Positions 9,660-48,447 are shown, counted from the first letter of the stretch. The stretch is 64,000 nt of DNA from an uncultured Gammaproteobacteria bacterium (GCA_965230935.1 OZ246400.1:502359-566358); one strand, 5' to 3'. Translations and numbers: made by a program. The notes: generated from the letters alone by a model not told the origin.

Positions 9660-9742
9660 AAGACATCCCAATTGGGAGACTGTGACATCGGTCGCAGTTG
9701 GTTTCGCTCTTTTTCATGGATGCTTACGAGGAGGGCATCGCC

Positions 9743-11017
9743 ATGCGGCAAACAGTAATCATCGTAACGGCACTGGTCATGGGCTTGTATGCCCGCAGTG
9801 CCGACGCGCGCCCGATCAAGGACGTGCTCATCGTGGTGGCGGCCGGAAACGGGCTGGAGGAGGTGCGCACGAACGTGTCGCGCCTGCAGCAGTCGATCGA
9901 GCTGCACCTGCAGCGGGAGTTCCCGACCCAGAATCTCACGTTCGCCAAGACCAGGACGATTCTGCGACAAGGAGGACTCAACGCCAAGCGGTTGGAGACG
10001 TGCACGTACAGCGCGACCTGTCTGCACGATCTGCGCACCAAGTTGGGAGTCAAGCCGGACCGGCACTTCCTGGTCGTGCGCATCACTGGTGCTGACGCTA
10101 CCCATGCCGATCAGTACCGGGTGGTGGTCTGGAAGATCGCCGCAACGCAGGACATGGACGAGATGAACCACTCCACCTGGGTGGCGCAGGACCTGAGCTC
10201 GTTGATCAACGGAACGCGGAACCTGACGGCGACGCCGCTGCGCCCGCGCGAGGCGGTGGTGAACTTCGAACTCAAACCAGAGAACACCCGGGTGAGCGTC
10301 AACGGGACCCGACTCACAGCACCGCGCATCACGCTTCCGTTTGGCAGCACTCAGGTGACGTTCAGTGCGTCGGGGTACGTCACGCGAAAGGTGCGAGTAA
10401 CGGTGGATTCGCGTCAGGCGCGTACGTTCAAGATCACGCTGGAGCGTGCAGCGCCGGTCGATCCATGCGCCGAGGTGGTTTGCACCGCCCCGGACACGTG
10501 CGTGGACGGCCGCTGCGTGTGTCAGCCGCAGTGCACTGGTAAGCAGTGTGGTGACGATGGCTGCGGCGGGAACTGCGGCGTGTGTGGTGAGGGGACGATC
10601 TGTTCGAGCGCCAACCAGTGCATCGAGGAGCCGTTCGCCTATGGAAGAACGCTCAAGATCACCGGCTGGTCGGTTGGCGCCGTGGGCGTGATCGTGACCA
10701 TCACCGGTTCGATCATCTACAGCAGCGGGCTGGACGCCGACGACGCGCTGAGCGAGAAGTGCCCAGGCAACCGCTGTCCCGACTTCACCGAGGAGCAGAT
10801 CCGCGACGAGGCGGCTGACGTGAACAGCCAGCTGGGTACCGGACGCGCCTTGTTGATCGGTGGGATCATCGCCGCGGTGGGTGGCGTTGCCACGGCCATC
10901 ACCGGCCATGTGCTGAGTGCGGACAACACCGATAGCTCGGTCGAGGTGATGGGCTTTGAGCTCATGCAAGATCCTCGCGGACGACCGATCGGGTTCCTCA
11001 GCACCGTGCGCTTCTAG
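9743..11017 (+). CDS. Secreted PEGA-domain protein with a Cys-rich repeat region and a C-terminal Gly-rich hydrophobic segment (about 62% GC)
   Basis: Signal peptide MRQTVIIVTALVMGLYARSADA. PEGA-like VNFELKPENTRVSVNGTRL...FSASGYVTRKVRVTV. Cys-rich CAEVVCTAPDTCVDGRCVCQPQCTGKQCGDDGCGGNCGVCGEGTICSSANQC. Start at the internal Met with SD; the ORF extends to 9698. Confidence 0.7.
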   Translation: MRQTVIIVTALVMGLYARSADARPIKDVLIVVAAGNGLEEVRTNVSRLQQSIELHLQREFPTQNLTFAKTRTILRQGGLNAKRLETCTYSATCLHDLRTKLGVKPDRHFLVVRITGADATHADQYRVVVWKIAATQDMDEMNHSTWVAQDLSSLINGTRNLTATPLRPREAVVNFELKPENTRVSVNGTRLTAPRITLPFGSTQVTFSASGYVTRKVRVTVDSRQARTFKITLERAAPVDPCAEVVCTAPDTCVDGRCVCQPQCTGKQCGDDGCGGNCGVCGEGTICSSANQCIEEPFAYGRTLKITGWSVGAVGVIVTITGSIIYSSGLDADDALSEKCPGNRCPDFTEEQIRDEAADVNSQLGTGRALLIGGIIAAVGGVATAITGHVLSADNTDSSVEVMGFELMQDPRGRPIGFLSTVRF

Positions 11018-11146: not shown

Positions 11147-12991
11147 TTACAGGTTTGTGCACCCGCTATCTGCCAACACAAACGTCCTAGCGGTACTGCG
11201 CTCTTTCCGAGGAAGGAACGAAAGATACCGCTTAAACGCCCGACAGGCAGCCGGCTTGTTGTGCCGACGCAGGTATGCGTACCCTTGCTTGCGCAGCCGC
11301 TGGGCTTGCTGGGCTTGCGTGAGCTGCGGCTTGAGCTTGCTTTGCGCACGCCGTGCGAAGCGCTCGGCCAGTTGATACTGACCATCACGCCGCGGCGTTC
11401 GCCAGGAGTCAAACTCCAAACTCAACGGCGCCCGAACACGTCGAGGCGGATTCATCACCTCACCGTCTCGTCGAGGAGTACGCATTGGCTGCTGAACCAC
11501 CTCTGGAACCGGTGCAGGAGCTTCCACTGTCTCGGGTGCAGGTTCCGACTGCTCCTCTTGGATCGGAACCGCCGACTCTGGCGCCGCCTGTGTGAGCGAG
11601 GTAGCGCTATCACCCATCTGCAGTGTATCGTCCTCCGGGCGTTGTACCAGAAAAACCACCACCAGCAGCAATGCAACGACCGCCACTGCGAAGAGCCCGA
11701 TCAGCCGCTTGTTACGCGCGACAGGTCCCACTCCAGCGGAGAGCATGTGTGCCATGGTCGGCGACGAAGCCGGTGTCGCATCCACCAGAACAGTCGGCGA
11801 GGCCGACGGTGTTTTGGTGGTCGGACTGTTCGGCGTCAGTGCCTGAGCAGTCTCTCCGCGCCCCGAAACGATCTGCCCCGGAGCGATGATCGACACACTC
11901 GGTGATGGCGACGGCGTTTCCACCAAAGGACCAGACACCATAGCAGCCGCGCCACGAGAACTGGTCCGAGCAACCTGCAAGCGCAAGCTGATCTGCTCGA
12001 GCTGCTCAGCCACCTCTTCTGCAGTTTGCACCCGATCCTCGGGCTTGATCTGCATCAGCTTGAGTGCCAGCGCGCTCAACTCCGGATCAGCGTCTGAATT
12101 GTGCTTGCGCGGATCCAGGCCCTTGACGATCTCGGGGTCAAAACGCTGAATCAGCATCGCCATGGCAACTTCGTGCGTCTCCAGCTGAGCCGAAGTCGAC
12201 GAATCCACGGTGAAGGGCATCTCGCCGGAGAGACACTCGTAGAGCATCACGCCCAGCGCATACAGATCGCTTCGGCCATCGATGCCAGCGTCGCCCCGCG
12301 CCTGCTCCGGTGACATGTACTGCGGCGTGCCGCACACCATGCCGGCGGTCGTCAGACGTTTGGCGAGCTCGGTCTGCTCCTCCCCTGGGCCTAAAACCAC
12401 CTCCACGGGCATCTTGACGATCCCAAAATCCAGAAGCTTGACCACGTCGCGACCCTTTGCACCGGAGACCACCATCACGTTCTCGGGCTTGAGATCGCGG
12501 TGGATCACGTCCTTGCCATGCGCATGGGCCAGCGCAAGGCAGATCTCCCGGAAGATGTACGCCACACGGAACTGTTCCATGAACTTGCCCACCTGGCGAC
12601 GCCCCCAGTTGATCACCGCCAGCTCCTTACCGTCGAGGTACTCCATGGCAATGTAGAGCAGCCCCTTGAGTGGAACCGGCGACGAGATTTCGTCAACCGA
12701 GTACACGGTGAGAAATCCGGGATGGTGCGACATCTTGGCCATTGCGGTGACCTCGCGCCGGAACCGTGCACGAGCCATCGATTCCTGGAGGAACTCTGGC
12801 TTGAACACCTTGAGTGCGACCTCACGTCCGCCGACGCTCTTCTCCTGGGCGAGATAGACAATACCCATCCCGCCGGTGCCGATGTGGCGAACGATCTTGA
12901 AGTTGCCGTTGATGATCTGACCTGGGACCAACGTCGTGGTCACCAGCTCACTCGACACCACTCCGGATGCCGGCTGACGTTGCTGTGCCAC
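11147..12991 (-). CDS. Membrane-anchored Ser/Thr protein kinase (Hanks-type) with a C-terminal TM and basic extracellular tail
   Basis: Kinase subdomains are present: GTGGMGIVYLA, VALKV, HRDLKPENVMV, DFGIVK, GTPQYMSPEQ. TM segment LIGLFAVAVVALLLVVVFLV. About 62% GC. Confidence 0.85.
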   Translation of the reverse strand: MAQQRQPASGVVSSELVTTTLVPGQIINGNFKIVRHIGTGGMGIVYLAQEKSVGGREVALKVFKPEFLQESMARARFRREVTAMAKMSHHPGFLTVYSVDEISSPVPLKGLLYIAMEYLDGKELAVINWGRRQVGKFMEQFRVAYIFREICLALAHAHGKDVIHRDLKPENVMVVSGAKGRDVVKLLDFGIVKMPVEVVLGPGEEQTELAKRLTTAGMVCGTPQYMSPEQARGDAGIDGRSDLYALGVMLYECLSGEMPFTVDSSTSAQLETHEVAMAMLIQRFDPEIVKGLDPRKHNSDADPELSALALKLMQIKPEDRVQTAEEVAEQLEQISLRLQVARTSSRGAAAMVSGPLVETPSPSPSVSIIAPGQIVSGRGETAQALTPNSPTTKTPSASPTVLVDATPASSPTMAHMLSAGVGPVARNKRLIGLFAVAVVALLLVVVFLVQRPEDDTLQMGDSATSLTQAAPESAVPIQEEQSEPAPETVEAPAPVPEVVQQPMRTPRRDGEVMNPPRRVRAPLSLEFDSWRTPRRDGQYQLAERFARRAQSKLKPQLTQAQQAQRLRKQGYAYLRRHNKPAACRAFKRYLSFLPRKERSTARTFVLADSGCTNL

Positions 12992-13374: not shown

Positions 13375-14409
13375 CTACGAGTCGTACCGGTCAGGTTTGT
13401 CGTAGGCGATGATTACAATATCGATGCCGGAGATGTGATGATCGCGCCAGCCACGATTCTTACTGGCGATACGCCAAGCAACCGCCAACCCTGCCATGGT
13501 CGTGCGACCATATGGCAAAGTCAGGTAGTTGTCCCAGTGCGGCAACCCATGCGTCATCGGCAGTCCTGGAAATCCTTCCAGATCGCGACCAACCGGAGCG
13601 TATTGCTTGTTGGTCAACTCGTCGCTCACCAGGACCGTGTCTGAGACTAACTCTTCTTCAAAGGCCGCCCTGATGTGAGGAAAGGGAATCCCCGGAAAGC
13701 TGGTGCCAGGCAAGCGATGCCGTGGCAGACTACCAGGCTCGATCCCGTACTCTTGCTTGTACCGTCCTGGGTAGATCATCTCGTAACCCACCCCTGACTG
13801 GAAGGATTCGAACGTCACGACCCGGACCCCAGCACGATTGAACACGCGACCCGGACCCAGGACACTCGAACCGTTGCCAAGCCCAGCGACATAGACGTCG
13901 ACTTCACGCCCGCGCTGTTCGAGAACCTCTTCTCCGATCGCTGCGAGTGCTGAGGTTGTAATCGTGTTCTCTGTCCCCCCAGCCCACATCGAGTGATTCA
14001 AGAAGAACACATCGGGGTTATCCGGTAGGTACCTCCGGAGAAAATCCGGAAAGCCGCTCACGTAGGTTTCAGCCGAGGTGAAAATGAGCTCTGCGCCCTG
14101 TGCCTTGATGGCCTCCTCACGCGCACGCTCACCCCCTGCAGGGATCGCGACTATACAATGGTAGCCGAGCTCGCGACCAATCCCAGCAAATGACACGCCG
14201 GCGCTCCCTGAGGTTGTCTCCAACACCTTGTCACCTGGCTGTATCCGTCCCTGGCTTTCCCAGTACCGGAACAGCGCGAGGTACACCCGATCGTAGTGAC
14301 TCCCCCACGGGTTGTCGCACTCCAACTTGAGCCAGATGCGACAGTCGTTTGGCACATACCCGCTGTATTGAACCAGCGGAGTATTACCGATACTCTTCAG
14401 TATGGACAT
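13375..14409 (-). CDS. PLP-dependent enzyme of the CysK/CBS (Trp-synthase beta) superfamily
   Basis: MSILKSIGNTPLVQ... and TSGSAGVSFAGIGRELGYHCIVAIP resemble the cysteine-synthase N-terminus and the lysine/Gly-loop region. Start at the internal Met; the ORF extends to 14493. About 57% GC. Confidence 0.7.
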   Translation of the reverse strand: MSILKSIGNTPLVQYSGYVPNDCRIWLKLECDNPWGSHYDRVYLALFRYWESQGRIQPGDKVLETTSGSAGVSFAGIGRELGYHCIVAIPAGGERAREEAIKAQGAELIFTSAETYVSGFPDFLRRYLPDNPDVFFLNHSMWAGGTENTITTSALAAIGEEVLEQRGREVDVYVAGLGNGSSVLGPGRVFNRAGVRVVTFESFQSGVGYEMIYPGRYKQEYGIEPGSLPRHRLPGTSFPGIPFPHIRAAFEEELVSDTVLVSDELTNKQYAPVGRDLEGFPGLPMTHGLPHWDNYLTLPYGRTTMAGLAVAWRIASKNRGWRDHHISGIDIVIIAYDKPDRYDS

Positions 14410-14675
14410 CTCCGCTTCTCCTCTCGCACTACCACACGCAGCAAAACGGCGTATCGGCTTCTGTGTGCAGATGATGCGACAGGAGTAGATCACATTGAAT
14501 CACGATTTCATGATTTCGTCAACATGATCAAAGGGTTCAAGTCCTGTGGGGAGTCCCTACTGGAATGTGCCTAATTTTGGTAGAAGAAAATTCCCAAATT
14601 TCACTGACGTGGAACCCAAAAATCTCGCCTAAAATTAGACGAGATTTCGGGGTCAAAAATGACATTTTTTGTGAG

Positions 14676-21899: not shown

Positions 21900-21980
21900 C
21901 ATGAGAGCTTGCCGGTACCAATACCGGTGTACCAATCATCCCGTTTCAACCGGCCAACACACGGCCAAGGGGGTTTTCCC

Positions 21981-22976
21981 GTGTTTAGTTACCGTAAGGC
22001 GCTGGACGCCTTCATCGTCCTAGCTGTGCTGCTCTTCGCGAGCGTGGCCATGGCCCAGACCCAGGTGCAATTCCGGATCAGCTCGGACTTCTATTGGGCC
22101 GACGACACCACCCGTGGTGAGCAGAAGGCCCCGGAGTTCGACGCCAAAACCGATGCACGGCGGCGTGTGGGCATGATGGTCCACTCGTCCATGGGCGGGA
22201 GCGTGAGCTACCTCACCACCTTCCCCCAGGTGCTGCTGGTCAATGGGCGCAAGATGAACCTGCACGACCGGGCTGGCGATCACGAGCCGATCATGACGCT
22301 CATGCTGAGTGTCGGTTCGTACAAGATCAACGGGTTCGTGATCCAGGCGCTCGACGGAGCCTGGCACTGGGTCAAGCCGTTCACCATCCGTGTCCGGGGC
22401 AACTCGCGCGCCATGGTGCACACCGTGCGTGTGACCAAGCAGATCGCGCAGGTGACCTGGAGCCCACGGCACTGCCTGGCGCACAGGGGCAGCAGCGCGT
22501 GCTACGACCCGAACCTCTACAGCCGCCGCTACAACTTCGACTTCTCGGGGAAGAAGGTCGTGGCGATTCCGGAGGGTCAGTATGACATCGTACGTCGGCC
22601 CAACACCCCGGCGTTCGACGACTACTGCACCTACGACCAGTCGTGTAGCGACAAGGACGTGGCAGCGCACCAGACCATGTTCGCGCTCTCGTGCAGCGGG
22701 GCCGGCAACAACAAGACCTACCGCCGGTACAGTTGCGAGAAGCTGGACAAGCCCGATGCCCTCGGGATGACAGTCACCTTCACCGAGTTGGTCATCGACG
22801 CCGATCTCGCCGAGTCGGTGACGCTGTACCAGACCGGCCATGAGCCACGTACGGTGCATGCTGGCCAGACCCTGAAGGTGAACACCGGCGACACCTACTC
22901 CTTCGTGGCGCCGGCGCCTGCCAAAGCCGAGGGTGAAGGCAAGCAAGCAGAGGCCAAAGGAGACACCGGCGGCTGA
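21981..22976 (+). CDS. Secreted hypothetical protein (about 62% GC)
   Basis: A GTG start preceded by AAGGGGG (7-nt spacer) gives the signal peptide VFSYRKALDAFIVLAVLLFASVAMAQ. The mature part has several Cys pairs and a C-terminal Ala/Glu/Lys-rich tail. ATG 21909 is an alternative, near-leaderless start. Confidence 0.55.
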   Translation: MFSYRKALDAFIVLAVLLFASVAMAQTQVQFRISSDFYWADDTTRGEQKAPEFDAKTDARRRVGMMVHSSMGGSVSYLTTFPQVLLVNGRKMNLHDRAGDHEPIMTLMLSVGSYKINGFVIQALDGAWHWVKPFTIRVRGNSRAMVHTVRVTKQIAQVTWSPRHCLAHRGSSACYDPNLYSRRYNFDFSGKKVVAIPEGQYDIVRRPNTPAFDDYCTYDQSCSDKDVAAHQTMFALSCSGAGNNKTYRRYSCEKLDKPDALGMTVTFTELVIDADLAESVTLYQTGHEPRTVHAGQTLKVNTGDTYSFVAPAPAKAEGEGKQAEAKGDTGG

Positions 22977-23160: not shown

Positions 23161-23727
23161 ATGATGCGATCCATCGGGATTGCGTTGTTGACCGTACTGG
23201 CCTTGGCCAGTGAAGCGCAGGCGCAGCGTGCTCCGAGCCCGGCGCAGATCCAGCGTCAGCGTGAGTACGTGGAGTACCTCGAGGGCGAGGCGCAACGCGC
23301 GCAGGAGATGCATTACCTGCGCGAGCGCGAGCAACGCGCACGTCAGGAGTTGCGCGAGTACGGTGGGGGCGGCTACTACCCTCAGCAAGGTGGCGGTGGC
23401 TACTACCCTCCTCAGGGGGGCTATGCCCCGCCGGGGTACCATCCTGGCTACCAGCCGGGTTATGGTCCGCCGCCAGGACATCATCCCGGTGGATATTATC
23501 CCCCACCATGTGAGCATGGTGGGGGGTACGGGCCACCGATGTACCATCCTGGCATGGATCGCCCGGGGCCGGGGTACTACCCACAGACCGGATCCGACTA
23601 TGGTTACCGACCGGCGCCAGCACCCCATCGGCTGCGCAGAGCGCGCGTACGACGTGCCCCGCGACAGCACCGCTATCGCAGACCGGTCCCGGTTCGACGA
23701 CGCGTCGTGCGCCGGCGCCATCGCTGA
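23161..23727 (+). CDS. Secreted low-complexity Gly/Tyr/Pro-rich protein with an Arg-rich C-terminal tail (about 65% GC)
   Basis: SD GGAGGAACGTCGT precedes ATG ATG. Signal peptide MMRSIGIALLTVLALASEAQA. Repeats GGGGYYPQQGGGGYYPPQGGYAPPGYHPGYQPGYGPPPGHHPGGYYPPP. Tail RRARVRRAPRQHRYRRPVPVRRRVVRRRHR. Confidence 0.5.
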   Translation: MMRSIGIALLTVLALASEAQAQRAPSPAQIQRQREYVEYLEGEAQRAQEMHYLREREQRARQELREYGGGGYYPQQGGGGYYPPQGGYAPPGYHPGYQPGYGPPPGHHPGGYYPPPCEHGGGYGPPMYHPGMDRPGPGYYPQTGSDYGYRPAPAPHRLRRARVRRAPRQHRYRRPVPVRRRVVRRRHR

Positions 23728-23860
23728 GAACCACAACCAACACACAACGAGACGACCGATCAAACGATCTGGTCGTTTTCAATTCACACCATTTGACACA
23801 AAAATCATTTCACGATAGGATACTTCTCTATCTCTGGGGAGAGGGGTTGATATTGAACAC

Positions 23861-31100: not shown

Positions 31101-31232
31101 AGGATGTTTTACAAACAAAAAAATCTGCGCGAGAACAGATGCCAAGAAACCCGTCTTTTTTGTGTCCAAAAATAAAACGGTTCCCGTTTTGTGATCAGGA
31201 TCAAATCCTTTGTTCGACGAAGGTATTGCCAT
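25140..31232 (-). CDS. Giant (2030 aa) Gly-rich cell-surface protein: N-terminal signal anchor, two ~270-aa beta-helix-like modules, three FN3-like domains, a Pro-rich linker, and a C-terminal two-TM module with two CarboxypepD_reg-like domains
   Basis: Single uninterrupted ORF. Motifs NGKGY, GGxGGAHGGDGG, YCDVTNP, GGGGAGGG, GGGGGGC. FN3-like ITFSWTDNSS.../ITLTWGANSNGPTTTYEV.... TM segments at aa 35-60, about 1590 and about 1740. Confidence 0.85.
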   Translation of the reverse strand: MAIPSSNKGFDPDHKTGTVLFLDTKKTGFLASVLAQIFLFVKHPWRLLIVASLLIWVIVASVGWPGLLTQQAHGGIAITWTGSGDGTSWSDTANWDLSRVPADGDDVTIDISATVSTTAAISFDTLTIGDGAGVVTSTLRLAHDITVGDDITVRQGGELAQYGTSTKTISGTLAVNSGGYLTHGGNIDSQVNELDLSVATFTLDSGGVVYLNGKGYIVKTTVGGNGFGPGFGHGSGATGGAGGAHGGDGGDGASGLDPGGTGYCDVTNPSTIGSAGGSGSGGANGGGSGGGLFMLTASSAVTLNGKILAEGGVGINTNGAGGAGGGVKVDSAGAIVGTPQSFSVAGGNSAGGTGDGGGGGGCVYLEYATTNSVSATSHLDLTGGTGTNERGGAGYAYLKKDGTDGDLYAINSGSGAGSTQGASSITADTLHMDTSAIYVVSTTHTLVLRNGDPFSGGDGTGSLQVDSGGTFTPTSTTNFTISNGKLILDAGGTLTSSSSVDMILGSSGTFDMRSFTTSSNPLPLDTLAINSGGTLTHGQNDTAQTHVIHLEASSSTVASGGSINVDGKGYKVHTAVGGSGNGPGGGGGSGAGSGGGGGHGGAGGAGTGAAGIAYCVTSTPGTTGSAGGSGSTGANSGGSGGGHIRFEVTNTLHIAGTVTADGNAGTGTNGGGGAGGGIYIIADTVAGTPSSMTATGGASGSSAGGGGGGGCIAVAYITANSVSSGDVAVTGGTGNTNNGAAGTFNGNGTPTAPTTLYSNNDDASSGDTNPTGLTDTTPAFSAIYNDPDSGDTANKARIQVSTDIAMDSITHWDSGAGGSTVSDCTQGNRCSDITYDALGSAATLSLALDDDGGEGATDTAYYWRVAYVDDDGSVGAWSATSTFTLQDIPKAPTSVGTSSVTASAITFSWTDNSSVEGLFRIQTSTDGSSFSDYALNAPNATTVALSSLDPNSVHYARVRAENTAGNSSYATSTAIYTLAARPNSFAAQVDSSESITLTWGANSNGPTTTYEVENITTGDTVTGLSATTHTFNDLSSNTTYSFQVRAFNGDNIASGYTGPISATTEGGTGGSNPSPPADPVPDGDNPTGAAFLINDGASVTHEQDVDITVFLSGAKSIALSNDSAFVNSKWETIAAFENGIIPHTLSDGEGGKIVYAKFETINGGVTKVYQQSITYEKIAPPEVEIDNPQEGASVLHNVSDPLAADHHKLTVTGHGIYSGKTTQLTLYRTLVTDDPETGEQATVYVPYLDDESSSSVSLFPSDITDTEKVWVVQFPSVSEIGTYRIVLQVRDDGTGEELLNSNRDFALVKKPKQPKPGPGEFVLNNGNKYTNVLSVPVFAFAKAYTHFVIDLAKKVDLANKILVEDPTQGYEGEFTLPDEDGIYQVEFVGLQDDDVIYSRRALVVLDRLAPEIPDVDVEIEVTENGIKYLVVSGKTEPLAKIVATKTFDGDEPLAGALRIAGVVTQTVDAAANGDWEVSFAQVSDGEHHLEVTSSDQATNTSDPNVVSVQVGELPEVPIPSNPPDGEDPPVDPDPPIDPDDPGVPPGSEPVGPTPDGPGPVEPDGSSPVVTSSPTSTVEMVPTSTIPVTLSTSTPTRIPTVIESVVDTTTQAVRAINRVIDDPQVEHVTEQVATPALAGVAALNVATAAGTLPSIPSYLYLLFSQFIGLFSRRKQKSWGVVFNALTKLPIDLALVRLINDQTNRVVQTRVTDVHGRFGFFVTRGSYRVEVRKHGFAFPAPYLISKTEDPTFGKIYNGEVITVDTESMYLIPNIGLDPQEDSRQVTQVRVDQVKKGIQAAVSYSGVAAAVVAFVISPTILVSLALLFHVLTFIFVRRVHMIAKVREWGVVFDGATNVALSKAVVRIFDARYNKLLETQVTRGKGRYAFLVGPNTYYVTYEKSGYRRRKTDHITIETPTGVIAKNATIHPGALQPTVGLAGPHHKPLVETSEVQPKEESPQSTEKLLQNPPPSTEPEVKEDQPEFDFAKMRELAQYGREDNKGGHHEHAPADNQKNPSDTTHPESSGSTLDST

Positions 31233-37400: not shown

Positions 37401-37652
37401 ACCATCCCACGTAATGGTCTCACTTACTCCTACTGCAGTAGGCTGCAAATCGCCAATCGGGAACCAATTCACCCCCACGATCACCCACATGAATACAGTA
37501 AACACGACCAACCAACGATATGGGTGATGGATAGTTTTAAAAAAATGACCAAGCAACTTGGTAAATTCTGCAAATTTTTTACCACAAAAAGCCAAAAAGG
37601 TTTTCGGCTTTGGTTCCGAAGCTTGATTGCGGTCCGATAAAGGCATTGCCAT
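31410..37652 (-). CDS. Giant (2080 aa) Gly-rich cell-surface protein, paralog of 25140-31232 with three beta-helix-like modules
   Basis: Same architecture and motifs as the neighbour. The C-terminal ~430 aa are about 65% identical to it (e.g. LPSIPPYLYLLLSQFFGLFGRRKKQWGVVFNALTRLPIDLALIRL..., YAFLVGPNTYYLTYEKSGY, EFDFAKMREMALYGRED). Confidence 0.85.
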   Translation of the reverse strand: MAMPLSDRNQASEPKPKTFLAFCGKKFAEFTKLLGHFFKTIHHPYRWLVVFTVFMWVIVGVNWFPIGDLQPTAVGVSETITWDGGGDGTDWNDTANWDLNRLPTSGDSVVIDIAATVSTTAAISFANISLGDGVGSVTSTLKLGHAITAGTNITIFQGGELTQVDDLTETITGTLEIRSGGYLTHQANTTTQDHELDWNVATFDLQSGGFVFLNGKGFEPSGNGSGGGGSSASSAGAGGAHAGDGGDSTGATGGTGYCDVTNPATVGSSGGFGPSGQLGGAGGGLFILNASGTATINGTITADGHPGQATTGGGGAGGGIKIDAAIVAGTPQGASVSGGDGGATSSGGGGGGCVLLSYTTSNSISATSTVSMGGGTGGNKRGGGGYAYVKQDGTDGDLYSVNSGASGASSTQGATSITANSLTINTSTVYLVPSGNTLVLRDVSPFDESDATGSLQIASGAIFTPTSTTDFEIASSTLIITSGSTITSSSSLDVFVEYDGALDMRSFTTSSAAQPFNTLMIHNGANLTHGQNTTTQTHVINISVASSTIEAGGSINVDGKGYEPHSSAATSNGPGGGGSSASVAGSGGAHAGDGGDTGGASGGTGYCDVTDPGTIGSSGGFGPSGEVGGYGGGLIVFAATGDFTINGTITADGGVGDATRGGGGAGGGVKLTAADFKGTPQSFTTTGGNGGSSGTGGGGGGCALLSFTTSNSIVVTSSITMSGGTGGAERGGAGYIYTKQSGTDGDLYSINGGSGETSTQGAETLTVDTLVTQTSATYLVPSGRTFVMQNSDPLADGDATGSLQLASGAIFTPTSTVDFTITSTTVILDAGATFTSSNNINVVVSDDGIFDMRSFTTSSDSLTLNTLLINDGGTLTHGTNDTTQTNVIYISATSSTVAVGGAIDVDGKGYGSSGNGPGGGTNTASTGGGGAGHGGAGGAGGVSGGSAYCIASDPGTIGSSGGSGAPSQAGGAGGGFIELDITGTLTINGTVTADGGNGTDSSGGGGAGGGVQFTANVIAGSPQSFTITGGASGATEGGGGAGGCALFNYTSSISLIEDDVTKTGGVGGNNNGAVGLFSTAIVNVTSSGTGGSTPAPPSEPEPSGENPTGATFLINDGARTTFIRDVDVTVYLPKATSVTLSSEPTFTGAKWVRLDSIRDNTVPFVLPDGAGSKIIYAKFETVNGAVSQVYRQVITYQTTQAPALVIDIPEQGAMVSHNLTQRDQADFQTVSVAGHGVFEDKTTVLTLYQVVTSIDQEGERSIAYVPYLASEERSQVSLFPSAISDADKKWNASFPAVDTLGAYRLTTNIIDDSSGDIVATQHRDFTLVAATRSPQPGSLGEFMVNHGQKYTNELKVPVYIYAQEFTHFVIDLARDINLADKQSTVAVGEPWEGEFILPEKDGVYFLGFVAFDKTGESIYRRRGMVVLDRTPPKTPEVNYQLQKVQTGRSDSQTQLVLSGKTEPFAQVIVTKTSPDIPQPIAGVLRIAGVTTQTTEAAANGDWELSFSGLQNGKHTLAVSVQDRADNTSDIAEVSVIAGDDVPDAPAEPPEDPSTEPESQPDPTSTDPAPSDQPTGPAPSTPTPAAPEPSAPSTPAPSAPAAPAPDAAAPSTPASTSTPEPVTLPTPVIVVEPETSTSTMTTSSDEAPLAQRTIYALVTGYEAVATFVDDPQVEQVTEEIATPVLATVATVNVVSSAAALPSIPPYLYLLLSQFFGLFGRRKKQWGVVFNALTRLPIDLALIRLVDDATGRVIQTRVTDTYGRFGFFAAEGSYRIEVTKRGFAFPAPYLAGKTEDVHFGQLYDGGKIQITSASQYITPNIALDPQEDARAVSRISRDQVLKHLQRIVSFSGIAAAGVSFVISPTIIVTLALAFHILTFVFLRRVRGIIKPTQWGVVADAQTRRALGKAVVRLFDAQYNKLLETQVTHGNGRYAFLVGPNTYYLTYEKSGYTRKKTDEVVITNVSDMIARDEKLTPGTQQPTVRLAGPHHKPLVDVVEDNTSRSASEDSSGSEQTPAPPAPPQKPTATSDDQQTKVPPSKNESPEFDFAKMREMALYGREDKSGGHYDHTADVPKDKTQNTS

Positions 37653-38355: not shown

Positions 38356-38432
38356 AGACAAAAATTATGATGAACTTCTAATTCCTCCTTTTTGTGCTAT
38401 GAAAATACTACAACATACAGATGTGATCTATG

Positions 38433-38506
38433 TAGGCGCACATGGAATCGAACCATGGACCGCCGAGATATAAGCTCGGTGCTCTAACCAACTGAGCTAT
38501 GCGCCC
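38433..38506 (-). tRNA. tRNA-Ile (anticodon TAT)
   Basis: Minus-strand sequence GGGCGCATAGCTCAGTTGGTTAGAGCACCGAGCTTATATCTCGGCGGTCCATGGTTCGATTCCATGTGCGCCTA. Anticodon loop CTTATAT, G1-U72 wobble in the acceptor, no encoded CCA. Confidence 0.82.
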
Positions 38507-40986: not shown

Positions 40987-43893
40987 CTATGTCTTTTTTG
41001 TCTTTGATTTTTTACCTGCCTTCTTTGCAGACAAAGAAGATGCTTTTGTTGAAGCGGCAATCGCCTCTTTCAAATATTTTCCAGTAAAGCTTGTCTTCAC
41101 TTTTGCCACCTCTCGCGGAGTTCCCTGTGCCACCACTTCTCCACCACGTTTACCGCCTTCTGGCCCCATGTCAATCACCCAATCCGCACTCTTGATGATG
41201 TCCATATTATGCTCGATCACCAAGACGGTATTTCCTTTTTCCACCAACTGGCGCAAAACTCCGAGCAATTGCTTAATATCTTCAAAGTGTAAGCCAGTGG
41301 TTGGTTCATCCAAGATGTATAATGTTTTTCCGGTCGCGCGGCGAGAAAGCTCAGTAGCTAACTTGACTCGCTGCGCCTCACCACCAGAAAGCGTGGTTGC
41401 CGGCTGACCAAGTGATACATACCCCAACCCAACATCAGCCAAAATCTCAAGCTTGTCTGCGATAGAGGACACATCGCTGAAGAATCGACGTGCTTCCTCA
41501 ACAGTCATGGCCAATACATCAGCAATAGTCTTCCCTTTGTAATGAATCTCAAGTGCTTCTTTGTTATAGCGTTTTCCTTCACACTCCTGACACTCCACAA
41601 ACACATCAGTTAAGAATTGCATCGGGATACGAACATACCCTTCACCAGCACAGGCCTCACAACGTCCCCCACCCTTCACGTTAAAGCTAAACTTCCCAGC
41701 ATCATATCCACGTAACTGCGCTTCTGGCACTTGTGTAAAGATATCGCGAATCAACGTGAACACGCCGGTATAGGTTGCCGGGTTACTGCGTGGGGTTCGA
41801 CCAATTGGTGCCTGGTTAATGGCAATCACCTTATCAACATTGCGCATGCCTTTGATCGTTTTAAATTCTCCTGGAGCAACCTTTGCGCGATGAAACTCAG
41901 CAGCAAGCGCTTTGGACAAAATATCAATCACCAACGACGACTTTCCAGAACCAGATACACCAGTAACACACACCAACTGCCCAAGCGGAATATCAACATC
42001 AATGTTTTTCAAATTAAACGACCGGGCACCAACAATGGTTAATTTTTTCCCATTCCCTTTGTTGAGCTTCTTGGGCATTGGAATTACCACCTTGCCGGTC
42101 AGATACTTTGCGGTCATGGACTTTGCTTGTTTTTTCACTTGCGCAACCGTACCAGCAGCCACGATCTCTCCACCATAAATTCCAGCTCCTGGTCCAATGT
42201 CAATCAAATAATCGGCAGCCTCCATCATGGCCTCATCATGCTCTACAACAATGACAGTGTTACCGAGATCGCGCAGTACACGCAAGGTTTCGATCAATTT
42301 GGCATTATCTCGTGAATGCAAACCAATTGACGGTTCGTCCAAAATGTAAATCACACCGGTGAGACCGGTTGAGAGCTGTGTAGATAATCGTACGCGCTGC
42401 GCCTCACCACCGGAAAGTGTTGCCATTGATCGATCAAGGGTTAGATAATCCAAACCAACCCGCATCAAATCATTTAATCGTGTAATCATCTCTTTGAGCA
42501 CTGGCAAAGCAATCTTTTTCTCGCGCTCATCAAAAACAATCCCCGCAGTTTTGCCACTTTGCACTGCAGTAAAGAACGCCACAATCTCATCAATACTCAT
42601 CCCCACAATATCAGCGATATTGTACTCACCAATACGAACCGCGAGCGCTTCGGGACACAAGCGCATCCCATTACACAACGGACACACACTCTCACGCATG
42701 TATTGCTCAATTTCTTTACGGATGTACTCACTCGTGGTTTGAGAATGACGAACCGTAAGATTAGGCACCACCCCTTCAAACACTACTGACTTATCATCAA
42801 TCACATAAGTCTTTCCGTCAGTTCCAAAATATAAAATATCCATCACGCGTTTTGACAAATCTTTAACCGGGACATCAACTGAAAACTTATGCTTTTTCGC
42901 AACCTCTTTTAAGAGCTTCTGATAAAACGCTTGATTCCCGGTAATGCGTGTCCACGGCTGAATCGCACCCTCAGCAAGTGTTAATTTTTGATTTGGAATC
43001 ACCAAACTCTTATCAACATCCAGTACCCGCCCAAGCCCGGTACACCGACCACATGCCCCATGCGGACTGTTAAAACTAAACGTGCGTGATTCAATCTCTG
43101 GAATCTCTTTTCCACACTTACCACACAAAAACTGTTCAGAAAATACCTCATCTTCATCATCATCCATGTCATAGATGATTACCCGTCCATTGCCCAAATC
43201 CATGGCACTCTCAATAAACGAACTGATGTTGTTTCGCTTCACATCAGTGACACGTCCAACCACCACATCAAGTGAATGATCGACTTTTGGCATCACGTCG
43301 ATAAGCTCGAGTTCGTTCTTCTTCATGAGCACACCATCAAAACGAACATAATCAAATCCGGAATGCTCCACATGCGAGAGCAGCGTCTTTTTATCAATAG
43401 ACTGATCCGCAAAAATAGGCGCTAACACCAACAGCTCATGATCAGTCCGCGCTAACGTACGCACTTGCTCCACAATCGCACCAGTGCTATAGCGCATTAC
43501 CGGCACATTACAATCCGGACAAAACTGCTGACCGATTCGTGAGAAGAGTAAGCGCAGATGATCGTATACCTCGGTCACGGTTCCAACGGTTGAGCGCGGA
43601 TTGCGTGATGTACTCTTTTGATCAATGGCAATAGTTGGTGACAAGCCTTTAATCTCATCAACATCGGGCTTATCTTGCAACTCCATAAACTGTCGCGCAT
43701 ACGAAGAAAGGGACTCCGCATATCTGCGCTGCCCCTCTGCATAAATAGTATCAAATGCTAAAGATGATTTTCCTGAACCGGAAAGTCCGGTAATGACGAC
43801 AAGGCTTTTTTTGGGAATCTCGATTGAAACCTCTTTAAGGTTATGCACGCGAGATCCTTTGATCGACAAGACATCTACTTTGGACTTTGCCAT
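40987..43893 (-). CDS. uvrA: Excinuclease ABC subunit A
   Basis: 968 aa with two ABC ATPase modules ([23 protein letters not shown]), zinc-finger Cys clusters and LSGGEAQRV signatures. Confidence 0.95.
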
Positions 43894-43975: not shown

Positions 43976-46900
43976 TTACTCGTACACTTCATTGCCGATA
44001 AGCATACCGCAGGCGCCAGCAAGACCAGAAAGGGAAACGGTATTCCAGCAGACTGGCGTAGCATCACTATTCGATAATCCTTTTGCCGCCAACGTGCCTT
44101 TCCACTTCTCGGTAAGATGAATCTCATCACATTGGCTTGGTGCATGTGAGTAGATGATGCCATCTTCATTTGTAATTGAAGGATTGCCAGTTGCATCACG
44201 AGTACAAATAGAACCCCACGTCTCAGTAAACACTAGTGGAGTCGTTACAAAATTGTCATCATCATTGCTTAGATATACTTTTGCAGTGGTTTTTCCTGAC
44301 TTCTTCGCATAGGCACACTTCCCAAATTCATCACTCAAATTTTCCTTGTAACATACCGGCTTCCCACCACCCGGCACATCCCCGACACTCTTCTTAAGTA
44401 ATTTACAACTTCCAGCGTATGTTAATTTATAGGTGTTATCCTCGGTAAACTCGTATCCTTTAAGTTCTTTACATGGCGAATCCCATGTTTCTTTAGAGCA
44501 CCACCCTAATCCAGTGGAGACTGAAATACCTTGACATGTCAATAAGCCTGCACTCACCCCAACTTTACACGTATTGATCTCTGATCCACATGGTGTTCCT
44601 TCTGCATACGTGTCACCAAATGCACTTGATTCATTTGGTGGCGGCACACATCGATATGATTTACCGGCAAGGGTAGTTCCGACATCAAGACAAGACAATC
44701 CGGCATTACAAATCGAGGAATCAGGACCAAAGTCGGTCACTTCACAATCTTCAAGGTCCGCTGGAGTATTGGCTGCCTGCACCTCAAGCACTCGAAGCTC
44801 AGCAGTCAATTGAGAACCTTGAATGCCAACAATTTCCGCAACGGCGTTGACTGCGCCAAGTACCGCCTGAAGCTTGATAAGTTTTTGCGACAATGTAGAA
44901 CCGACATACGCAAGGTCAATATAATCTTGATATGCGGCATGTTGTTCCAAAAGACTCTTATTTGAATCAATCCAATCTTGCACTTCTTTGCGTTTGGCAA
45001 CTACTTGTTGTTCATAGAACGGCTTGAGCTTGTGACAATTTTTTGTTTGGTACCCACCGCATGATGCGCCAATACTTCCATCACTACATTCAAACCGACG
45101 ACCGCCCTTAGCCTCGGTAAATGAACAAGAAAGACCGGGATCACATGTTGACTTCACATTGGTGACCACATTCACCCCTTCCTCAAGAGAAAAGTTGAGC
45201 GGATGACAATAATCAAGCTTTTCTCCGGCATCACATACGCCATGAATCTTATTTACAAAGCAGCCTTGTGTATCCATCAAAGCGACGCAAAGATCAGAGG
45301 CGCATTGATCATTACTTTGACACCGTTGCCCATTGGCCAAACTCCCACTTGTTGGCTGCTTCCAGCAAAACCCTATTGGTCCTTGCCCAGGAATCATACT
45401 CCGCCACTCTTCTGTTGCCATACGCACACTGAGTGCCGGATTTAATACCACCTTACCATTAGTGAAAACCGGGATTCCCAATTCTACAAAAAAGCTCGCT
45501 CCACCAAGTACCGCTTCTGCCAATACTTCTACGGCTACTTGAACTCCCGGGAGCGCCAATGACAAAAATGCACTACATGCTCCTTGTGTTTTCGGATCAA
45601 CATCCGGACGCTGTAAACACTCACCACCAAGCTTTCTACAAGCGTCACCAAGTGGCCCAACCGGGCGACAAATTTCTCCACCACCGGTCATGAGACGACA
45701 GTTATTTTTAATCTCATCTACTTTCTCCTTTGGCAATCCTCCTGGAATGCGAATCTGCGTACAAAAATTATCACTCTTACAACACACACGATCCTCTCCT
45801 ATGAAATTGGAAAGATCAACATTTTGATTTAATACCGCAGGTATGGGCGGTGTCTCAAATCTGGTAAGCGCCGGATTTACGGTTTGCAACAATCCATACC
45901 CACCAGCACCAACTCCCATGGCAACCACACTCCCAAGAATAATCCCTTTAGCACCAGTGATCGCTGCGGCATTCCCAGCGGCCCCTGCCCACTGCATTCC
46001 AGCGGCCGCAATGCTGATCACTGATACAATCGCCAAAAATCCCAAACTGTATTGAAAGACCGCGCCGACATACCCACTGATATTGGTAGTGGTGGTGCCG
46101 GCGATCGGAATATTCAGTGTTGCTTCCCCATTAACAAAGCAGTATGGCCCTTCTTTTGCGTTCTTATTATTGGAAGGTGGCGCCCATTGATATCCCCGAT
46201 CTTCACACTGCTTCTTGGTCCAGTGCTTGTCACTTTCCGGAGTATTATCAATCGTCAAAGAATCTTTTTGCTGCTCTGAACCTGTTGTAAATTGCTGATT
46301 TGCCTGCTCCTCATTTAATGTTACCGAACCACAAGCACTAATCTCATTGCAAAGCGTACCTTGAACAATCTCAACACGATTAGGCATACCCGCCTCATTC
46401 TTAAAACCATGTTGTTCAAGAAAAGCAGTTCCACACCCTGCAGCAGCATTACTACATTGCAATACCGGCTCACCATCCTCTAAGTTGTGGTCACCATCAG
46501 CATCAGTAAACACCACACAACAGGACGCTGCTTTCTGACAAGCGAGCTGTGTAGAACACTCTGCAGTGAGTAATTGCAATTTAACCTTATTCTCAGGATC
46601 TATTTTGTCACACACTCGCCCAAAGGGGAGATCTTTAGGAGGAGTACAAGAGATGAGCTCACCATTATTCACGACGTCATTCCCATTCGTGTCAGTGTAC
46701 TTGGCACAACAAAGAATCTCATCAGTAACTCCTACGGCAAGTTGTTGCTTCTCTTGCTCAGCGTATGCAAGATGGAAACCAACAGCAAAACCACCACTAT
46801 AATCTTGTTGACACACCGCCTCCTTTTCAAGACCAGGATATTGCGTAACGGTATATCCTGGGATCTGAGGACAGGTATAATCATGGTCGATTAAATCTAA

Positions 46901-47398
46901 ATTTGTTTTTGAAAACTGCTTACAACCAACACCGCTATGGCCATCTGAGTCTACGGTGTTCGATTTGTAATGACAATAAAACTTGTCATCCCATGGATCC
47001 TTAATCTGTGTTTTAAATGCACTTACATGTTCAGGAGCTCCGTTAGGTGCAAAACAGGACCAAAAATCTGCCCCACTATTAGTCTCCGCACTGCATGCTC
47101 CTGGTTGCAGTAGTGGAAACAAACTCTGCCCATCAACTTGCGCACCACTACAAAACTTACCGGTACTATCATCAGCATCCATATCAGTCCCGTTTGGAGT
47201 AACCACGTCTAGACACCCAATGGTTTTACCGTCCTCATCACCATCAGGAGATGCATCCAAGTACACACAACACCCCGCTTGACCAGCTGCATATACACTC
47301 GCTGGTATGGCCGTCATCACCAAGACCACTGCAGCAATGATTATCCATGCTCCAGTCAAAATGCGATATATGCTTCGTACCCTACCACGCTGTACCAT
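43976..47398 (-). CDS. Giant (1140 aa) Cys-rich secreted/membrane protein with a central two-helix hydrophobic hairpin resembling TrbC/VirB2 pilin
   Basis: Signal anchor ILTGAWIIIAAVVLVMTAI. More than 60 Cys, many in CC/CxxC pairs. Central VGAVFQYSLGFLAIVSVISIAAAGMQWAGAAGNAAAITGAKGIILGSVVAMGVGAGGYGLL. The start codon overlaps the dsbA-like stop by 1 nt. Confidence 0.8.
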   Translation of the reverse strand: MVQRGRVRSIYRILTGAWIIIAAVVLVMTAIPASVYAAGQAGCCVYLDASPDGDEDGKTIGCLDVVTPNGTDMDADDSTGKFCSGAQVDGQSLFPLLQPGACSAETNSGADFWSCFAPNGAPEHVSAFKTQIKDPWDDKFYCHYKSNTVDSDGHSGVGCKQFSKTNLDLIDHDYTCPQIPGYTVTQYPGLEKEAVCQQDYSGGFAVGFHLAYAEQEKQQLAVGVTDEILCCAKYTDTNGNDVVNNGELISCTPPKDLPFGRVCDKIDPENKVKLQLLTAECSTQLACQKAASCCVVFTDADGDHNLEDGEPVLQCSNAAAGCGTAFLEQHGFKNEAGMPNRVEIVQGTLCNEISACGSVTLNEEQANQQFTTGSEQQKDSLTIDNTPESDKHWTKKQCEDRGYQWAPPSNNKNAKEGPYCFVNGEATLNIPIAGTTTTNISGYVGAVFQYSLGFLAIVSVISIAAAGMQWAGAAGNAAAITGAKGIILGSVVAMGVGAGGYGLLQTVNPALTRFETPPIPAVLNQNVDLSNFIGEDRVCCKSDNFCTQIRIPGGLPKEKVDEIKNNCRLMTGGGEICRPVGPLGDACRKLGGECLQRPDVDPKTQGACSAFLSLALPGVQVAVEVLAEAVLGGASFFVELGIPVFTNGKVVLNPALSVRMATEEWRSMIPGQGPIGFCWKQPTSGSLANGQRCQSNDQCASDLCVALMDTQGCFVNKIHGVCDAGEKLDYCHPLNFSLEEGVNVVTNVKSTCDPGLSCSFTEAKGGRRFECSDGSIGASCGGYQTKNCHKLKPFYEQQVVAKRKEVQDWIDSNKSLLEQHAAYQDYIDLAYVGSTLSQKLIKLQAVLGAVNAVAEIVGIQGSQLTAELRVLEVQAANTPADLEDCEVTDFGPDSSICNAGLSCLDVGTTLAGKSYRCVPPPNESSAFGDTYAEGTPCGSEINTCKVGVSAGLLTCQGISVSTGLGWCSKETWDSPCKELKGYEFTEDNTYKLTYAGSCKLLKKSVGDVPGGGKPVCYKENLSDEFGKCAYAKKSGKTTAKVYLSNDDDNFVTTPLVFTETWGSICTRDATGNPSITNEDGIIYSHAPSQCDEIHLTEKWKGTLAAKGLSNSDATPVCWNTVSLSGLAGACGMLIGNEVYE

Positions 47399-48129
47399 TA
47401 CATCACCCGATTAAGAATATCTTCCCATCCTTCAAATGGAATATCTCCTTGAATTCGAAAACCATTGATAAAGAAGGTCGGCGTACCCACAACACCGGCG
47501 TCCAATCCATCTTCAACATCTTGTCGAACCTTATCTTTTTTTGCATCATCATCAAGGCACGCACTGAATACTGCGGTATCCAAATTTAGGGTCTTGGCAA
47601 ACTCAATCAAATTTGGCTCAGTAATAACGTTTTGATTTTGAAAAAGCGCATCATGATATTCCCAAAATCGATCTTGATCTCGTGCACACTCTGATGCTAC
47701 TGCTGCCATTGGCGCCTCACTATGCAACTGCGGTACGGGAAAATGCCGATACTGGAGCTGCACGTCATCACTATATTTGGCCAACACTGCTTTTAAAATC
47801 GGAAATGACTTTTTACAAAACGGACACTGAAAATCACCAAACTCAACAATCGTCACTTTAGGATCCTGCGCCCCAATGGCTGCGTGATCGCCAAGTTGCA
47901 CCTGTTTTTGCGGACCAGTTACCTCAAGCGCCGGCCGCTCAAGCCCTTGCGCCACAGTGAACTCTCCCGTACTAATCACCTGACTCTCCTGCTGTACAAA
48001 AGCGGCGAAATTCCGCATCACCATAATGATAAAGATCAAAATGGCGAAAAAGACAATGGCGATGACTGAAATCCAATGCCATTTAGCGTTTCGTGGTTTT
48101 CCTGAAACCATTTCCCCTCCATGATGCAT
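47398..48129 (-). CDS. DsbA-like thiol:disulfide oxidoreductase (thioredoxin fold) with an N-terminal TM anchor
   Basis: GDFQCPFCKKSFP is a CxxC motif. TM WHWISVIAIVFFAILIFIIMV. Start at 48111/48129 with GGAGGGG just upstream; the ORF extends to 48222. Confidence 0.78.
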   Translation of the reverse strand: MHHGGEMVSGKPRNAKWHWISVIAIVFFAILIFIIMVMRNFAAFVQQESQVISTGEFTVAQGLERPALEVTGPQKQVQLGDHAAIGAQDPKVTIVEFGDFQCPFCKKSFPILKAVLAKYSDDVQLQYRHFPVPQLHSEAPMAAVASECARDQDRFWEYHDALFQNQNVITEPNLIEFAKTLNLDTAVFSACLDDDAKKDKVRQDVEDGLDAGVVGTPTFFINGFRIQGDIPFEGWEDILNRVM

Positions 48130-48231
48130 AGTATGTCTCGTTATCAATAGGCAAAGTATACCATAAGTATGGCTACTGATCATCGCAAGATTGACGAAAA
48201 ACCAACTCTGTGCTATACTCATCTCAAACCT

Positions 48232-48447
48232 ATGACCACCGTATTAAGCATTATCGAAATTATTTTAGGAATTTTCCTGATTGTGGTGATTCTCTTGCAA
48301 CAAAAAGGGAGTGGTCTTGGTGCAGCGTTTGGTGGTGCAAGTACGGTATATAGCAGCAAACGCGGTATTGAAAAAACACTTCACAACATTACGATTGTTA
48401 CTGCCATCTTATTTTTCGGTGTAGGATTTCTTCACCTCTTTATCTAA
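48232..48447 (+). CDS. secG: Preprotein translocase subunit SecG
   Basis: MTTVLSIIEIILGIFLIVVILLQQKGSGLGAAFGG matches the SecG signature. 71 aa from the internal Met. Confidence 0.78.
   Translation: MTTVLSIIEIILGIFLIVVILLQQKGSGLGAAFGGASTVYSSKRGIEKTLHNITIVTAILFFGVGFLHLFI

Follow-up and report, generated by a model that had tools for sequence, protein, structure and literature searches.

What kind of protein is made by a gene that begins within the stop codon of a disulfide oxidoreductase gene and encodes a very large, cysteine-rich product with a pilin-like hairpin at its centre? This question is raised by a locus in a 64,000-nucleotide stretch of DNA assigned to an uncultured Gammaproteobacteria bacterium (GCA_965230935.1 OZ246400.1:502359-566358; hereafter the window, meaning the whole stretch analysed), in which a dsbA-type gene is directly followed on the same strand by an open reading frame (ORF) for a protein of 1140 amino acids (aa; hereafter the giant; Table 1). 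A preliminary description had offered, as one interpretation of the giant, a pilus or fibre subunit of a surface appendage resembling a type IV secretion system (T4SS) or a competence system. Architecture, homology, cysteine conservation, gene coupling and synteny, as computed here, point with moderate confidence to a two-gene module that makes a Sec-exported, fast-evolving and disulfide-braced surface or host-contact protein, in which a pilin-derived hairpin serves for anchoring or display.

Architecture of the giant and kinship of its hairpin

The giant contains exactly 60 cysteines, slightly below the figure of more than 60 originally given, with 24 in residues 41–440, 36 in residues 531–1140 and none in residues 441–530, which bears out the large cysteine-rich flanks first described around the hairpin. 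Hydropathy places a hydrophobic, signal-peptide-like N-terminus at residues ~7–39, equivalents of which are present in the relatives of the giant, and the sequence suggests that a signal peptide is cut after residue 37. The predicted N-terminal ectodomain contains three CC-x-[YF]-x-D...C motifs (at residues 43, 230 and 293), is common only to 4–6 members of the giant family and is the least conserved region of the protein. The C-terminal ectodomain contains small repeated C-x2-GL-x-C...[YF]-x-C modules, an amphipathic hydrophobic stretch (~607–640) and long helices predicted at ~792–876 (low-confidence model). When sub-segments of this half were compared using hhalign, one weak repeat of the small cysteine module was recovered (C3 versus C4, probability 82); BLAST of the giant against itself detected no internal repeats, and no known domain was found in either cysteine-rich half by Pfam or by sequence searches of the PDB with a profile of the family.

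The central region is placed by its homologues. An exhaustive phmmer search with the giant against 1.84 billion representative sequences (cut-off E ≤ 1e-3) returned 2074 matches, four of which were full length (P0002–P0005), while all others aligned only to residues ~390–540, with E-values for this hairpin region down to 5e-15 across the library (cited range 5e-15 to 1e-8). Among 61 partial matches sampled, PF18895 (T4SS_pilin) was identified in 60 (best E 1.8e-25) and PF04956 (TrbC/VirB2) in 12 (best E 6.7e-8), and the Pfam coordinates agreed with the region aligned to the giant (for example, residues 353–422 versus 347–441 in P0006). On this evidence, the hairpin is best read as a divergent VirB2-type pilin module, belonging to the VirB2-like pilin family typical of Patescibacteria, an assignment made through transitive and profile homology and not through a curated model. 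The TrbC/VirB2-type layout proposed earlier therefore stands as a relationship reached via homologues bearing PF18895 and PF04956, while a direct match to the PF04956 hidden Markov model (HMM) was not obtained. VirB2/TrbC similarity was nonetheless recovered by profile methods, and its absence had been named beforehand as one outcome that would count against the original proposal.

Several further comparisons surround this assignment. Two of the full-length relatives, P0004 and P0005, match PF18895 directly at the hairpin (E 0.002 and 0.006, 17–19 bits), below the gathering score of that model (26.6 bits), while no direct PF18895 match was found for the proteins of P0002, P0003 and L006. A module profile that includes the giant (A5) retrieves proteins nearly all of which had already been annotated with PF18895, from sources named Patescibacteria group bacterium, Candidatus Sungbacteria and Saccharimonadales. 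Alignment of the giant’s module by hhalign gave a probability of 100 over 141 columns, and an HMM built from 145 module domains scored the giant at 1.4e-36; both values are circular, the 145 domains having been selected with the giant. No match to the giant was found in NCBIfam, a word-indexed homologue search with either the protein or the five-member alignment returned the giant itself alone, a fold search of the hairpin against BFVD gave no match, and sequence searches of the PDB using the A1 (family) and A5 (module) profiles yielded nothing meaningful.

The similarity extends to non-hydrophobic positions. For example, the aligned pre-domain, which is small and Cys-stapled, contains W-T-x3-C ... 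W-x-PP ... GPYC (W393..C398..W405-PP..GPYC420 in the giant). The alignments also include an L-x-V-x-IGG strand and, within helix 1, a Gly that never varies; helix 2 opens with a near-invariant Ala-Lys pair and is followed by a QT(I/V)NP-x-L...PP motif. An AlphaFold2 (AF2) model of residues 385–530, based on 35 aligned sequences, shows two helices of ~30 residues joined by a 4-residue turn (predicted local distance difference test, pLDDT, 87.2), with a confidently modelled small N-terminal module ahead of them; the two long hydrophobic helices and short loop noted in the preliminary description are thus supported by hydropathy and by structure prediction alike. The hairpin could in principle be a generic two-helix anchor rich in Ala and Gly, its likeness to pilins being one of composition and not of descent, and the lack of Pfam and NCBIfam matches to the giant, together with the return of only generic helical hairpins by Foldseek, would fit such a view. 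However, E-values as low as those obtained, alignments that include W-T..C, GPYC, IGG, the invariant Gly, Ala-Lys, QTxNP and PP, the PF18895 membership of all but one of the sampled matches and the direct PF18895 matches of two close relatives leave this explanation largely refuted on sequence grounds and scarcely credible.

The hairpins of the giant family are richer in Ala, Gly and Ser (combined fraction 0.41) than those of other members (mean 0.31, highest 0.36), and this fraction reaches 0.49 in the window’s giant and in P0002. Such richness may be the reason why the Pfam model misses the giant, and it may allow tighter packing of the helices.

Within the giant family, the full-length relatives P0002–P0005 (1179–1202 aa, E 4e-112 to 5e-65) share only 27–36% identity with the giant, whereas identity between the same genomes reaches 73–83% for UvrA and 43–58% for DsbA. 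Across the five full-length members, 119 columns are invariant, 52 of which are cysteine, such that 52 of the 60 cysteines of the giant are unchanged throughout the family. Invariant columns are most frequent in the pilin module (22%), which makes up 12% of the length of the giant, and less so in the C-terminal (10%) and N-terminal (7%) ectodomains; cysteine accounts for 50 of the 88 invariant columns across both ectodomains and for 17 of 25 in the N-terminal one. The low identity of the giant combined with its retained cysteines therefore points to a sequence that diverges rapidly while its disulfide scaffold stays fixed. More broadly, the usual order among 145 module-bearing matches is a leader, the module and an extension of ~250 aa with 6.9% cysteine, and long extensions on both sides of the module were present in only 8 of them. 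The 876-aa protein P0009 has an N-terminal ‘CC’ motif as in the giants and, judged by its sequence, looks like an intermediate between the short and giant forms. Pilin-type modules are also fused to cell-wall hydrolase domains in relatives, as in a protein of L016 (9967–11109) with Amidase_2, and single members among the 61 sampled combine the module with SLT, VanY, NlpC/P60, Peptidase_M15 or GDSL lipase domains. These fusions suggest that the module generally carries or anchors extracellular effector domains.

The upstream oxidoreductase gene and its conserved locus

The protein encoded immediately upstream of the giant was confirmed to be DsbA-like, as first proposed: it scores well above the Pfam gathering thresholds (GA) for Thioredoxin_4 (5e-26, 92.3 bits; GA 23.2) and DSBA (6e-22, 78.8 bits; GA 25.6), and it contains a CPFC active site (47815–47826), retained as CPFC or CPYC in orthologues, as well as a cis-Pro loop, GTPTF, that is conserved in orthologues as VVGTPTF. 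Its nearest solved structures in the PDB are B. subtilis BdbD, ScsC and C. diphtheriae DsbA (E ~1e-12), and weak NCBIfam matches to TrbB (E 0.02–0.04) fall far below the cut-off. A hydrophobic stretch, WHWISVIAIVFFAILIFIIMVM, precedes the DsbA domain at the N-terminus, from which the enzyme is predicted to be extracytoplasmic and held by an N-terminal anchor. The start called in public assemblies (48129) is used here, and an alternative start at 48111 is preceded by GGAGG; the start of the longest ORF (48222) was rejected. No VKOR or DsbB match was detected by Pfam among the annotated ORFs of the window and its flanks.

Direct reading of the sequence confirmed that the TAA of dsbA and the ATG of the giant overlap by one nucleotide (Table 1), and the pairing of the two genes is retained in relatives; loss of this pairing was another of the outcomes named beforehand as counting against the original proposal. 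In all 9 distinct relatives with known upstream DNA, dsbA lies directly upstream on the same strand, with an overlap or a gap of no more than 6 nucleotides. The junctions read TAATG in P0001, ATGA in P0002, TGATG in P0003 (from the gene call), TGATG in P0004 and ATGA in P0005, where DsbA is interrupted by the contig end, and the giant-family loci L001–L005 have overlaps of 1 or 4 nucleotides. In the ORF listing of L006, dsbA is directly upstream with a 4-nucleotide overlap, and the tblastn statistics of this locus are near-identical to those of P0003. A further giant with dsbA upstream is represented by L011/L012, while L013 is a short contig bearing the pair. The same arrangement occurs in shorter forms, with gaps of 6 nucleotides in P0009 and 4 nucleotides in P0007 (373 aa, already annotated with PF18895). 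A metagenome scan with the family alignment A1 added only 3 loci.

The pair sits within a wider conserved order, in which SBP_bac_5 and SecG are divergent from a series formed by DsbA, the pilin-domain protein (X), UvrA and L19, with X ranging from 373 to 1202 aa. For example, secG also adjoins dsbA in L002, L004, L006, L008, L009, L011 and L012, and the synteny persists where UvrA is only 57–58% identical to that of the window, X there being 373 or 381 aa. This locus, shared with shorter DsbA-coupled X proteins, identifies the giant as the expanded positional orthologue of a DsbA-coupled, cysteine-rich family of pilin-domain proteins. The adjacent uvrA probably has no functional link to the giant. 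Promoter and terminator scans of 43.7–48.6 kb gave nothing above shuffled expectation, so operon boundaries are drawn from gene spacing only.

It is possible, although not favoured, that the adjacency reflects a general secretion and folding housekeeping cluster, in which DsbA would serve all exported proteins and the giant would have no special coupling to it. In its favour, secG is the divergent neighbour, with uvrA and rplS next in line, a single membrane-bound oxidoreductase family is widespread in the candidate phyla radiation (CPR) (bioRxiv 10.1101/335083), and DsbA is not encoded next to every member of the domain family. In contrast, the close junction is maintained in every one of the nine relatives despite a threefold range in length and 27–36% identity downstream, and the gene that follows dsbA is always a cysteine-rich member of the pilin-domain family. 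The two explanations are in any case compatible.

Proposed export and display, and the case for a pilus

The two-gene module favoured here would operate as follows. Sec would export the giant (secG adjoins the pair and yidC is in the window), and the leader would be cut after residue 37. The hairpin would then insert in the manner of VirB2/TrbC propilins, the 4-residue loop remaining in the cytoplasm and both cysteine-rich halves (about 350 and 615 aa) facing outside; this topology is also the only one that places both halves outside, within reach of the membrane-tethered DsbA. The co-translated DsbA would oxidise up to 30 disulfides as the chain emerges, and translational coupling would keep the enzyme and its heaviest substrate produced together. 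The end product would be a rigid protein of the surface or of host contact, quickly diverging in sequence, which the pilin-derived hairpin either holds or presents.

Several results weigh against this reading. The PF18895 and PF04956 models miss both the giant (E ≤ 1) and the isolated 98-aa hairpin (E ≤ 10), and in the fold search of the hairpin, where the best PDB match has an E-value of 1.9 and an archaeal conjugation pilin ranks 16th, the hairpin is not separable from generic helical hairpins. A full-length AF2 model of the giant from a 5-sequence alignment reached a pLDDT of only 36 and gave no confident structure for the ectodomains. The DsbA link also loosens farther out in the family, DsbA being located 2 kb upstream in the same direction in P0120 and absent within 8 kb of P0060, and DsbA may be a general oxidoreductase of the cell, not dedicated to the giant. 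In addition, we infer cleavage, topology, disulfide formation and surface location of the giant from its sequence. P0120 itself (L016, 5304–9970) lies at an odd insertion site, between genes for pyruvate/2-oxoacid:ferredoxin oxidoreductase (POR), with POR gamma, delta and alpha upstream and the thiamine pyrophosphate (TPP)-binding subunit downstream, and DsbA heads its gene string.

The origin of the hairpin raises the question of whether the giant belongs to a pilus. Pfam searches of the sizeable ORFs across ~84 kb, comprising the window and 10 kb on either side of it, detected no T4SS family on any of them, consistent with the earlier observation that VirB4, VirB6 and ATPase genes are absent from the window. 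The giant could nevertheless be a true subunit of a T4SS pilus: should the genome encode a T4SS, VirB4-type machinery might use the hairpin to extract the protein as a minor, tip or decorating pilin, whose cysteine-rich domains, exposed along a VirB2-like pilus or at its end, would bind the host cell. The homology of the hairpin to VirB2-like pilins is in keeping with this, as is its position as the best conserved part of the protein. In VirB2/TraA pili, both termini face outwards from the filament, and the ectodomains of the giant would be located there. VirB2-like pilins and T4SSs are also widespread in Patescibacteria and essential in one species (PMC12102498, PMC12857230). Against such a role stand the lack of T4SS genes around the giant, the retention of a housekeeping locus across distant genomes and the absence of direct evidence that the giant polymerises, and this explanation is considered rather improbable.

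A stricter version, in which a thick, disulfide-cross-linked fibre has the giant as its major structural pilin, is much less probable still. It shares the VirB2-like homology, and the Ala/Gly/Ser-rich hairpin (0.41 versus 0.31) would suit tight helix packing. However, each subunit would carry ectodomains of ~350 and 615 aa, which are hard to fit on VirB2/TraA-type filaments that offer a surface of a few hundred square ångström per subunit. Only one copy of the gene is present and no assembly genes lie near it, and the locus holds proteins of 373–1202 aa in relatives, contrary to what a fixed filament lattice would lead one to expect. A role as major pilus subunit is therefore unlikely, because of the ~965 aa of ectodomain per subunit, the variable length of the proteins in this slot and the lack of linked assembly genes. 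The original proposal is thus supported in part: the pilin-type hairpin and the conserved DsbA coupling hold, whereas a polymerising pilus or fibre subunit is not supported, the gene being located in a housekeeping SecG–DsbA–X–UvrA locus without T4SS genes. No support was found for the suggested link to competence or type IV pili; a type IV pilus or competence pilin was rejected, as the giant has neither a class III signal nor a single N-terminal hydrophobic helix and all of its homology is of VirB2 type.

A broader version of the preferred surface-protein reading can be put forward tentatively. The divergent SecG and DsbA–X arrangement might represent a T4SS-independent surface-display system widespread in CPR, in which a VirB2-derived hairpin has been exapted to anchor or to oligomerise hypervariable ectodomains knotted by disulfides. 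Recognition or breaching of host cells would be the task of these ectodomains, with the 1140-aa giants as the most elaborate form of the system. In other members, the same module carries cell-wall hydrolases (Amidase_2, SLT, VanY, NlpC/P60). In an alternative version of this broader reading, the conserved QT(I/V)NP...PP motif after helix 2 would serve for processing, by which the C-terminal cysteine-rich domain is set free.

Genomic setting and comparison with known systems

The sizeable ORFs of the window encode housekeeping or surface proteins, including GroEL, YidC, NusA, aminoacyl-tRNA synthetases, RNase J and glycosyltransferases, together with a Ser/Thr kinase, a bactofilin and two giants with fn3/Ig domains; the 10-kb flanks add RF-1, KsgA, RuvA, IleRS, a 2792-aa ORF and other genes. 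The pilin module occurs in the window in the giant alone. The two tandem paralogues of 2030 and 2080 aa carry fn3/Big_13/Ig-like domains; their N-terminal regions are Gly-rich and beta-helix-like, and each protein has a hydrophobic segment close to both ends. Kinship of these ORFs with the giant was rejected, as they contain 6–7 cysteines, fn3/Big_13 domains and no pilin module. With the 2792-aa ORF (L017) just past the left end of the window, large surface proteins take up much of the coding capacity of the region around the giant.

Two GC-rich islands (9600–14500 and 21900–23800) have a GC content of 0.56–0.65 in a window of 45% GC, and their appearance suggests horizontal acquisition from an organism of high GC content, possibly a host. 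Neither the 355-aa nor the 188-aa ORF of the second island has a Pfam match. Nearly all genes to the left of a strand switch at ~48100–48250 are on the minus strand and all genes to its right on the plus strand, dsbA and secG diverging here across about 60–120 bp; the GC skew shifts at the same point from about −0.2 to about 0, and no dnaA was seen. The window also encodes a tRNA-Ile with anticodon UAU, which is uncommon in bacteria, where AUA is usually decoded via a lysidine-modified CAU.

The 931-kb contig, the taxon names of the module relatives and the gene content suggest that the source is a small-genome, probably host-dependent bacterium of CPR/Patescibacteria type, and probably a monoderm. 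The records L006 and L007, which contain close relatives, are titled ‘uncultured Gammaproteobacteria bacterium’, and the PF18895 protein P0223 is named ‘pilin [Nevskiaceae bacterium]’. Metagenome-assembled genomes (MAGs) that carry this locus under a Gammaproteobacteria title are probably mislabelled, since Patescibacteria are indicated by gene content and by the remaining named relatives.

Table 1 Features of the giant, its locus and the remainder of the window, with positions counted from the first nucleotide of the window
Feature	Position	Strand	Description
Giant ORF	43976..47398	−	Intact, 1140 aa, 60 Cys
Predicted Sec signal peptide	47288..47398	−	Residues 1–37; Arg-rich n-region, hydrophobic core, predicted cut between SVYA and AG; from hydropathy and sequence
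N-terminal Cys-rich ectodomain	46229..47287	−	Residues 38–390, 22 Cys
VirB2-like T4SS_pilin module	45824..46228	−	Residues 391–525; pre-domain, helical hairpin and QTVNP...PPIP motif
Hairpin helix 1	45983..46081	−	Residues 440–472; from AF2 domain model and hydropathy
Hairpin helix 2	45878..45970	−	Residues 477–507; from AF2 domain model and alignments; near-invariant A483 K484 at start
C-terminal Cys-rich ectodomain	43979..45823	−	Residues 526–1140, 36 Cys
Membrane-anchored DsbA/BdbD/MdbA-type thiol-disulfide oxidoreductase	47398..48129	−	243 aa as called in public assemblies
TAATG stop/start overlap	47396..47400	−	dsbA ends GTG ATG TAA (TAA 47400–47398); ATG of giant 47398–47396
secG	48169..48447	+	Divergent neighbour of dsbA; Pfam SecG 2e-14
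uvrA	40987..43893	−	82 bp downstream of giant; present in every locus reaching that far
Tandem paralogous giant genes	25140–31232, 31410–37652	−	2030 and 2080 aa, ~50% identical
First GC island, PEGA-domain ORF	9698..11017	+	
First GC island, Ser/Thr protein kinase	11147..12991	−	
First GC island, PALP enzyme	13375..14493	−	
Second GC island, secreted ORF	21909..22976	+	355 aa
Second GC island, secreted ORF	23161..23727	+	188 aa, Gly/Tyr/Pro-rich
tRNA-Ile	38432–38506	−	Anticodon UAU (tat)

The closest known counterparts of the giant are the VirB2-like pilins of Patescibacteria (PF18895/PF04956), which occur in 1948 assemblies of that group, beside virB4 in 1135 of these and often in tandem arrays (PMC12102498); in Southlakia epibionticum ML1, a six-pilin array and the T4SS are essential according to PMC12857230, which cites Wang et al. 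2023. The giant resembles these pilins in its homologous leader and two-helix module, in the conserved Gly, Ala-Lys and QT(I/V)NP positions and in lineage type. In contrast to PF18895 pilins, for which matches are mostly 90–270 aa, it has 1140 aa, carries its module mid-protein between two cysteine-rich ectodomains and is present in a single copy. Unlike the virB4-linked members, it is coupled to dsbA in a SecG–UvrA locus without any T4SS gene in the ~84 kb covered, and unlike curated PF18895 members it falls below the threshold of the Pfam model. DsbA, thioredoxin and disulfides are nowhere mentioned in PMC12102498, and literature searches returned no description of a DsbA-coupled VirB2-like module with cysteine-rich ectodomains, nor of a form of ~1150 aa.

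Similarly, the TrbC/VirB2/TraA pilins of diderm T4SSs (PF04956) share with the giant a leader (its cleavage being a prediction for the giant) and two long hydrophobic helices with a short loop. The giant is ~10 times larger, however, and lacks a direct PF04956 match, and neither cyclisation or processing partners nor VirB machinery were seen around it.

With respect to the oxidoreductase, membrane-bound MdbA-like enzymes are enriched in CPR, often beside VKOR, and have been proposed to fold type IV pilins (bioRxiv 10.1101/335083). The dsbA–giant pair is comparable to A. oris MdbA–FimA, B. subtilis BdbDC–ComGC and the F-plasmid pilin-assembly thioredoxin TrbB, where an exported substrate of pilin type requires, or shares its locus with, an oxidase of thioredoxin fold that is tethered to the membrane. 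The substrates of the MdbA and BdbDC systems are of unrelated pilin types, namely sortase pilins and type IV pseudopilins, with one or few disulfides, whereas the giant has up to 30 predicted disulfides; dsbA and the giant are, moreover, translationally coupled, and no VKOR/DsbB partner was seen in the window.

Bacteria of the Patescibacteria/CPR live on other cells. The locus shows that the pilin module also occurs outside small subunits linked to a T4SS, and that a sub-family translationally coupled to the membrane-bound disulfide oxidase of the cell, in a conserved housekeeping locus, carries fast-evolving, cysteine-scaffolded ectodomains of about 200 to 1000 residues. Such proteins are candidates for host recognition or host attachment in CPR, and their coupling suggests a dedicated route of oxidative folding. 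The arrangement also provides a genomic marker, namely DsbA followed at −4 to +6 nucleotides by a PF18895-like, cysteine-rich gene next to secG and uvrA, for members that surveys of ‘VirB2-like pilins’ at Pfam thresholds overlook, these being the most derived.

The giant can also be compared with P0007 (373 aa), P0020 (381 aa) and P0009 (876 aa), which, as far as literature searches show, are themselves unnamed and undescribed. These proteins occupy the same slot, between the SBP–SecG pair with its divergent DsbA and UvrA, and share the module including its pre-domain as well as a cysteine-rich C-terminal extension. In the giant family, by comparison, an extra ectodomain of ~350 aa precedes the module and the C-terminal one is about twice as long, which makes the giant a greatly enlarged and apparently undescribed version of a known pilin-like family.

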